Below are positions 1 through 724 of a DNA stretch of 724 bases, piece by piece. The stretch is from Escherichia coli (GTDB taxonomy: Bacteria > Pseudomonadota > Gammaproteobacteria > Enterobacterales > Enterobacteriaceae): NCBI RefSeq assembly GCF_003334815.1, contig NZ_QOWO01000120.1; one strand, written 5' to 3'. The notes beneath the pieces were generated by a model that saw only the letters and a program-made list of their open reading frames with translations, did no database searches and was not told the origin of the DNA. Position numbers and translations under genes: made by a program. Position 1 is the first letter of the stretch. Each line of letters opens with the position of its first letter.

Positions 1-724
1 GTAAGTCACTGTGTGGATTATCATAACGGTAGCGGGTGATATCGCCGTCAGGGGCAGTTTCCTGAATCAGACGGCCCCATTCATCATATTCCCGGCGTAT
101 TTCCAGCCCGTCAGGCCCGGTGGCTGACGTTAACTGGCTGTGGTGGTTATAGTAAAACGCCGATGCCCTGCCATCCGGCGTGGTGATGCGCGTGATGAGG
201 CCCGTCACCACATCCGGACTGTATTCTGTTGTCCTGCCTGCGGCATCCGTCTGTGCCCTGAGCCTGCCCACCGCGTCAAACTGACTCTGCGTGACGCTGC
301 CGTCCGCGTGTTCCTTTTTCACCACCCGCTTCAGCCCGCCTTCACCCTGCGTGTGCAGGACTTCACGGCGGTTCAGGCTGTCGGTGATGGTGATGCGGTC
401 CTTCTCATACTGATACGTGTAACTTAAGCCTGCCGGGTTTAGCTGTTCTGTCACCCGCCCGTCGCTGTCGTAACGGTAACAGATTTCCGGTCGGCCCGTG
501 TGACGGTGCGCCACCATCCGGCCCCGGTATTTATCATCGTAAGTAAAGCTGCGCACCTGTGTATTGCTGCGGTCATACACCGCCGCCAGTTCGCCGCGGG
601 GCGTCCAGCCATAGCGCACCAGCGGCGCGGCAGGTAAATTCTCCGGGTATTCCGGGTCGTGCGTCAGCCACACGGCAGACAGACGGATGCCGTTGTCCCG
701 GCCATATTCGGTGTAACCCGGCAG
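1..724 (-). CDS. rhs: Rhs-family YD-repeat protein (polymorphic toxin core), internal fragment, partial at both 5' and 3' ends; codons run 724..722 down to 4..2, with base 1 belonging to the next incomplete codon
   Basis: Seen in sequence: I reverse-complemented and translated the window by hand; this minus-strand frame has 241 sense codons and no stop. The translation carries repeated YD-repeat signatures: FTYDDKYRGRMV (plus-strand coords ~509-544), CYRYDSDGRVTEQ (~449-478), REYDEWGRLIQETAPDGDITRYRYD (~20-91), FDAVGRLRAQTDAAGRTTEY (~221-280) and YGRDNGIRL (680-706). Established knowledge: this YxYDxxGR[LIV] pattern with ~21-residue spacing and elevated GC defines the Rhs/YD-repeat core, and I recognise the sequence from memory as close to the Escherichia coli Rhs core family. 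The family-level symbol is given because the paralog cannot be resolved; no start or stop codon lies in the window. Confidence 0.9.
   Translation of the reverse strand, partial: MPGYTEYGRDNGIRLSAVWLTHDPEYPENLPAAPLVRYGWTPRGELAAVYDRSNTQVRSFTYDDKYRGRMVAHRHTGRPEICYRYDSDGRVTEQLNPAGLSYTYQYEKDRITITDSLNRREVLHTQGEGGLKRVVKKEHADGSVTQSQFDAVGRLRAQTDAAGRTTEYSPDVVTGLITRITTPDGRASAFYYNHHSQLTSATGPDGLEIRREYDEWGRLIQETAPDGDITRYRYDNPHSDL

Follow-up and report, generated by a model that had tools for sequence, protein, structure and literature searches.

A protein-level YD-repeat array with a period of about 21 residues in an internal rhsC fragment of Escherichia coli

Introduction

The YD repeat was defined decades ago on the Rhs proteins of Escherichia coli, and a structural explanation for it has been available since 2013. 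The large, near-identical paralogous cores of the rhs genes are the origin of the name Rhs ('rearrangement hot spot'). The consensus YDxxGRL(I/T) was first established on the E. coli proteins (PMC4436062, PMC10684867, PMC2935791). The Rhs core is built almost wholly of staggered β-hairpins, in which YD marks the transition from a strand to a sharp turn, and together the hairpins make up a single, unbroken curved sheet that closes to form a container (bioRxiv 10.1101/2024.02.26.582050); the strand-to-turn position of YD in shell hairpins has also been described elsewhere (PMC8636562). The C-terminal toxin enclosed by the shell is freed after autoproteolysis (PMC8636562, PMC10684867). [quoted passage not shown] Within each Tse5 repeat, D-x-x-G-R makes the turn, glycine provides torsional freedom and tyrosine points toward the cavity and forms bonds with the repeat before it; the tyrosine position is often taken by His, Arg, Trp or Phe (PMC10684867). 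The same YD-repeat hairpin fold, wound into a spiral shell, is present in TcB/TcC of the ABC insecticidal toxins and in teneurins (PMC8636562).

Here, we analysed a stretch of 724 nucleotides from E. coli (contig NZ_QOWO01000120.1; the whole stretch is referred to below as the window), in which an earlier note, made from the sequence alone, had described a YD-repeat array with a period of about 63 nt (21 residues) along the minus strand. Compared with RhsC of E. coli K-12 (rhsABCF subfamily, Rhs core proteins), the window is the same gene and shows no difference. Its YD repeats are therefore already known and are the type example of the repeat, not merely similar to it. The best solved relative was Tse5, both by sequence (E 8.2e-37 for the window) and by fold (E 3.8e-17), with an identity over the window of approximately 29%. 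The C-terminal toxin of Tse5 is unlike that of RhsC. To our knowledge, K-12 has no T6SS, and therefore any delivery of RhsC in K-12 would be hypothetical, whereas T6SS delivery has been demonstrated for Tse5. Other T6SS Rhs shells share the hairpin-repeat sheet with the window (TM 0.71-0.74, rmsd 2.6-6 Å; sequence E 1e-19 to 1e-22, identity 18-26%) and differ from RhsC in their N-terminal delivery modules (prePAAR/TMD/PAAR or a VgrG fusion) and their toxins. They include P. protegens RhsA (7Q97), the Salmonella bongori Rhs core (8QJB/C/D), A. mimigardefordensis VgrG-Rhs (8QJA), P. laumondii Rhs1/Tre23 (7PQ5), A. baumannii Tse15 (8UXT) and RhsP (8H8A/B). TcB/TcC (4IGL, 4O9X) and teneurins (6FB3) were more distant (Foldseek E 1e-9 to 1e-7 against the window model, identity 14-19%) and lie outside the enterobacterial RHS_core family; the Tc shell is made of two proteins and docks on TcA, and the C-terminal domain of teneurins lies outside the shell. 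As the hairpin-shell role is explained by several solved Rhs, Tc and teneurin shells, the repeats have little discovery value.

Results

The window is an internal fragment of rhsC

Frame 1 of the minus strand (plus positions 724 down to 2) was open over all 241 of its 241 codons, and the longest open reading frame in any other frame of the window was 95 aa. All 724 bases matched rhsC of E. coli K-12 MG1655, and that of many other strains, at 100% identity. In the MG1655 record, the window corresponded to residues 277-517 of RhsC (1397 aa, WP_000015200.1); it is an internal rhsC coding fragment (2..724, minus strand), the reading frame of which extends beyond both window ends. The translated window matched the NCBIfam RHS_core profile (NF041261) with 476.6 bits over profile positions 285-525 of 1261, and the parent RhsC matched this equivalog profile over its entire length (positions 1-1261) with 2683.5 bits, at a cut-off of 2000. 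The window is a piece of the gene for RhsC, which belongs to the Rhs core proteins of K-12.

Of 5426 complete E. coli genomes, 3885 contained DNA similar to the window, with a median of 3 and a maximum of 7 places per genome. Two of these match places were located on plasmids. In each listed K-12 record, the 724 bases matched three places, of which the two besides rhsC are presumably the paralogous cores of rhsA and rhsB, as taken from the literature. These near-identical paralogous cores constitute a far stronger DNA repeat than the 63-nt periodicity within the gene.

A periodicity of about 21 residues is carried by the protein sequence

BLOSUM62 autocorrelation of the 241 residues gave peaks at lags of 21 (z 5.4), 22 (z 3.3), 43 (z 3.4) and 64 (z 5.7), and its maximum was not reached by any of 2000 shuffles. 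The ungapped periodicity was carried by residues 121-241 (z 5.7). Residues 1-120 alone showed no significant periodicity, as 985 of 2000 shuffles reached the observed value; the ungapped signal is lost in this half because the repeats there carry indels. A repeat HMM trained solely on nine RhsC repeats located outside the window scored 30.9 bits on the window, versus 8.2 bits for the best of 1000 shuffles. Both the autocorrelation and this independent profile thus returned the significant internal repeat of approximately 21 residues that the earlier note had proposed.

The repeat was also recognised by family profiles. Pfam RHS_repeat (PF05593) had five matches in the window at E <= 0.001, and TIGR01643 (YD_repeat_2x) matched three stretches with 67.2 bits, at a cut-off of 15.8. 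An iterated repeat HMM placed nine repeats in succession across RhsC 313-506, with spacings of 22, 23, 21, 22, 21, 21, 22 and 21 residues; no longer uninterrupted run occurred among the 24 repeats with a positive score that the iterated HMM found in RhsC, and the array extended beyond both window ends. At the family level, 37,853 clusters of family representatives matched the window at E <= 0.001, and many long family proteins did so in 10-36 stretches. The strict consensus YDxxGR[LV] was present in three of the window repeats only. The periodicity in the window is the classical YD (RHS) repeat with the consensus xYxYDxxGRL(I/T).

Eleven repeats are placed in the window

The register of the repeats was set with an alignment (A1) in which the window was combined with 12 stretches from orthologues and 8 from proteins whose YD repeats are very regular. 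The Y-D columns of A1 resolved the window into 11 repeats (R1-R11, all on the minus strand), in agreement with the structural model described below. The first repeat, R1 (617..709, residues 6-36), was degenerate, with the anchor R9-D10 in YGRDNGIRL placed by A1; in the model, it was mostly coil, with residues 1-11 at low confidence. It carried a proline-rich loop insertion of approximately 12 residues, THDPEYPENLPAAP (residues 21-34, 623-664 on the minus strand), which was conserved in close Rhs orthologues and missing from the regular YD proteins of A1. In R2 (551..616, residues 37-58), the anchor W40-T41 lay within RYGWTPRGEL according to A1, and the assignment was backed by an independent HMM match at residues 38-57 and by predicted strands at 36-40 and 46-50. 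R3 (482..550, residues 59-81; anchor Y62-D63) had a turn two residues longer (YDDKYRGRM), and R4 (419..481, residues 82-102) had the canonical YRYDSDGRV with the anchor Y85-D86, recognised by Pfam RHS_repeat (85-116, E 6.4e-6), the repeat HMM and the model. R5 (362..418, residues 103-121) was anchored at Y106-E107 and had a tight, glycine-free turn (YEKDRITIT).

R6 (290..361, residues 122-145) was degenerate, with the anchor T125-Q126 (A1) and a longer turn, GEGGLK; the model showed a strand at 120-126 followed by a short helical turn (HHH) at 129-131. The repeat HMM set this anchor, with no gap, three residues later than A1, so the register of R6 is ambiguous by three residues. A three-residue insertion, GGL (residues 129-131, 332-340), coincided with the predicted helical turn. 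The proline-rich loop of R1 and the insertion of R6 could be surface loops or plug contacts. R7 (227..289, residues 146-166) was canonical (FDAVGRL, anchor F149-D150) and was matched by Pfam RHS_repeat (149-187, E 8.9e-8), the model and the repeat HMM. In the case of R8 (161..226, residues 167-188), YSPD replaced YxYD, giving the anchor P170-D171 (A1) and a turn one residue longer; the predicted strand 165-170 ended at P170, and an HMM repeat was located at RhsC 443. The R9 anchor, Y192-N193 (98..160, residues 189-209), lay at the end of a predicted strand at 187-192, and Y192 was nearly invariant in A1. R10 (35..97, residues 210-230) was canonical (YDEWGRL, anchor Y213-D214), with a Pfam RHS_repeat match at 213-235 and the best score of all the HMM repeats (19.2 bits). 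R11 (2..34, residues 231-241), placed by A1 with YRYD and the anchor Y234-D235, was clipped by the window end. The strongly degenerate repeats were R1, R5 and R6. The unusual anchor residues R9, W40 and F149 fit the substitutions known for the tyrosine position (PMC10684867).

This register corrected the anchor list of the earlier note. All eight of its dipeptides were located where it had placed them: YD at residues 50-51 (572-577), 62-63 (536-541), 85-86 (467-472), 213-214 (83-88) and 234-235 (20-25), YE at 106-107 (404-409), FD at 149-150 (275-280) and YY at 191-192 (149-154). Six of them were exact anchors, the YY pair was one residue off (Y192-N193), and Y50-D51 was no anchor at all, as it ends the second strand of the R2 hairpin, at the opposite turn and half a repeat out of phase. 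The eight anchors also fell short of the full array, having passed over four degenerate repeats, R8 among them. The motifs DSDGRV, DAVGRL, DEWGRL and DNGIRL were found at residues 86, 150, 214 and 10; however, the claim that most of the listed anchors are followed by G-R-[LV] held for three of the eight only, and DNGIRL belongs to an anchor that had not been listed. Overall, the observation was confirmed with corrections to the register, and its interpretation as an Rhs-shell repeat was supported by the identity with rhsC, the RHS_repeat and YD_repeat profile matches, the all-β model and the Foldseek matches to Rhs shells. A reading of the raw sequence had been right about both the protein-level nature of the repeat and its family, and the value of the result lies in calibration: spotting anchors by eye errs through a half-repeat phase slip, overlooked degenerate repeats and a harmonic that resembles a super-period.

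Each repeat is predicted to form one β-hairpin of an Rhs shell

An AlphaFold2 model of the window fragment, built from the 21 sequences of A1, reached a mean pLDDT of 90.4 and a pTM of 0.71 and presented an array of β-hairpins; only residues 1-11 were below 50, and residues 1-11 and 235-241 were of low confidence. The model was all-β, with 19 strands of 3-7 residues each. Strand starts were on average 10.7 residues apart and those of every second strand 21.4 residues apart; therefore, each repeat corresponds in the model to one hairpin. Eight of the ten anchors in the stranded part coincided exactly with the C-terminal end of an odd-numbered strand or preceded it by one residue, and the degenerate T125-Q126 likewise preceded such an end by one residue. 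Y50-D51 ended an even strand, and Y234 fell in the low-confidence tail. Each repeat is thus predicted to form a β-hairpin with YD at the strand-to-turn transition.

The top Foldseek matches in the PDB were Rhs shells: Tse5 (8cp6, with the E value given above), RhsA (7q97, TM 0.71), the S. bongori Rhs core (8qjb, TM 0.74, rmsd 2.6 Å) and A. mimigardefordensis Rhs (8qja, TM 0.74). The TcB/TcC shells and teneurins formed the next tier. At the sequence level, RhsC 48-931 aligned to Tse5-Shell 1-845 (E 1e-125), so that the window falls within the initial part of the barrel, immediately past the N-terminal plug.

Taken jointly, we are nearly certain that the window is RhsC 277-517, that its periodicity is the YD repeat and that the repeats are hairpins building the Rhs shell; none of the results spoke against this reading. 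According to the model, each repeat would be one β-hairpin with two strands approximately 10.7 residues apart, in which the aromatic-Asp anchor would close the first strand and D-x-x-G-R would make the tight turn. By analogy with the solved shells, tyrosine may face the cavity and bond to the preceding repeat, with glycine permitting the turn, and the hairpins would stack side by side into one long antiparallel sheet that winds into a spiral, hollow shell. The stretch encoded by the window would be the start of the barrel wall, right after the N-terminal plug, and the complete shell would enclose the variable C-terminal tip of 150 residues past the PxxxxDPxGL boundary. From the same analogy, we infer toxin enclosure, N- and C-terminal cleavage and delivery of RhsC. 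The periodicity would be maintained by selection on hairpin geometry and not by recent DNA duplication, which would account for the weak periodicity of the DNA.

Alternative explanations of the periodicity

A recent duplication array of 63 nt or a minisatellite would produce a periodic protein without selection on its structure. The DNA did show an excess of identity at lags of 63, 66 and 129 (z 3.5-4.2), the maximum of which was reached by 7 of 2000 codon shuffles, and the two YRYD tetrapeptides, at residues 83 and 232, were encoded by 12-mers identical at 10 of 12 positions, TACCGTTACGAC (plus 467-478) and TACCGTTATGAT (plus 20-31). However, the two differences fell exactly at synonymous third positions, and the identity at lag 63 was 33.5% versus 27.2% expected (z 3.5; z 4.2 at lag 66), a signal much weaker than that of the protein. 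Tandem Repeats Finder found no array with a period near 63, its sole match being an unrelated one of 19 nt with a period of 10, and a repeat search of the window returned only scattered two-copy matches of 12-19 nt with unrelated spacings. The faint excess and the missing 63-nt array agree with the degenerate DNA repeats that the earlier note had described, and an origin of the periodicity in DNA-level tandem repetition is highly improbable. Still less credence can be given to the idea that the pattern arises by chance or from the composition of a GC-rich open frame, or that the real gene is on the plus strand, possibilities that we regard as practically negligible: the region is GC-rich (60%) and its plus strand holds a GTG-initiated ORF of 95 aa (140-427), antisense to rhsC, but shuffles that kept the composition never reached the observed periodicity, and the minus frame, uninterrupted through its 241 codons, has the sequence of the annotated rhsC. 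The plus-strand ORF was not credibly matched by any family (the best match had an E value of 0.038 and 13 bits, at a cut-off of 338); it is probably no gene, because long antisense ORFs are expected in a gene of 60% GC. Rfam gave no match on either strand of the window, and a structured RNA in the window was rejected accordingly. A perfect 14-nt inverted repeat, CGGCATCCGTCTGT / ACAGACGGATGCCG (241-254 / 679-692, with arms 424 nt apart), was likewise set aside as compatible with chance, since inverted repeats of at least 14 nt arose in 22 of 300 codon-order shuffles.

The selected hairpin repeat could itself be part of a larger unit of 64 residues, with three hairpins forming the unit of duplication or structure. 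The autocorrelation at lag 64 (z 5.7) was as strong as that at lag 21, the strict YDxxGR[LV] motifs stood at residues 85, 149 and 213 (467-472, 275-280 and 83-88 on the plus strand), exactly 64 apart, and lags of 62 and 64 were also raised in full-length RhsC. A super-repeat should be visible as higher similarity between every third repeat, yet the mean in-register similarity at an index distance of 3 was 1.9, compared to 6.1 at distance 1, 4.2 at distance 2 and 5.4 over all pairs, and the distance-3 value was reached by 4269 of 5000 permutations (RhsC alone, n = 9 pairs). The lag-64 peak is explained by the well-preserved R4, R7 and R10, with intervening lengths that happen to sum to 64. We therefore consider the super-repeat very unlikely, if slightly less so than the DNA-level array.

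Putative shortened Rhs proteins with joins at YD repeats

The hexapeptide EYDEWG occurs in the window (74-91, minus strand; residues 212-217) and again at RhsC 1169-1174 (L001, the MG1655 locus, 8677-8694). In one database protein (P0002, 718 aa), RhsC 1-501 was joined in frame to 1169-1249 within EYDEWG, and the K-12 DNA at the two junction sites was identical at 16 of 17 positions. In a second database protein (P0024, 786 aa), an in-frame join linked RhsC residue 514, approximately, to 939 and lay in a YDxxGRLxEKTD repeat. The two look like repeat-to-repeat deletions of an RhsC-like shell; they may be genuine truncated shells or stem from collapsed assemblies. It is conceivable, though rather doubtful, that shortened Rhs shells arise in nature through recombination or deletion between YD repeats in register, with those of the window serving as breakpoints. 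If P0002 and P0024 were real genes, repeat-to-repeat deletion would be a route to short Rhs proteins; 'short Rhs' proteins unable to enclose a toxin have already been reported (bioRxiv 10.1101/2024.02.26.582050).

Architecture of RhsC and its chromosomal neighbourhood

Outside the window, Pfam identified DUF6531 at RhsC 46-123 and RHS at 1143-1179, and an Rhs_assc_core was found at 1170-1247. The boundary motif PxxxxDPxGL was present as PISNIDPLGL at 1238-1247 and was followed by the 150-residue tip; DPIGL and DPLGL occurred at RhsC 1221 and 1243. The GC content of rhsC was 61.4% in the core versus 41.2% in the tip. At the N-terminus, RhsC begins with MSGKPAARQGD, containing a literal PAAR at residues 5-8 (L001 5185-5196), and a Pfam search of RhsC 1-1200 returned no PAAR domain. 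The sequence PVNPLLGA at RhsC 48-55 (L001 5314-5337) resembles the N-terminal autocleavage motif PVxxxxGE, and P48 is also precisely where the alignment of RhsC to the Tse5 shell begins, in line with the Tse5 cleavage site Lys47-Pro48 (PMC10684867).

In MG1655, rhsC is located between ybfA/kdpFABC and ybfB. None of the genes in the 12.7 kb examined around rhsC was a T6SS gene. The small downstream ORF ybfB (108 aa), which begins at the rhsC stop codon and had no family match, is a candidate immunity gene. The region past rhsC (L001 9366-12724) contained ybfB, an N-terminally truncated 'RHS repeat-associated core' pseudogene, ybfC, a small ORF belonging to this pseudogene, and remnants of an ISAs1 transposase. 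This arrangement is typical of an orphan toxin-immunity cassette. Along the locus, the cores had a GC content of approximately 0.6, which fell to 0.34-0.41 in the tips. A marked positive AT skew of 0.13-0.28, with A over T, further distinguished the coding strand of the rhsC core (L001 6000-8999) from the tip and the neighbouring genes, where it vanished; the skew probably reflects the Asp/Glu/Thr/Arg/Tyr-rich composition of the repeats.
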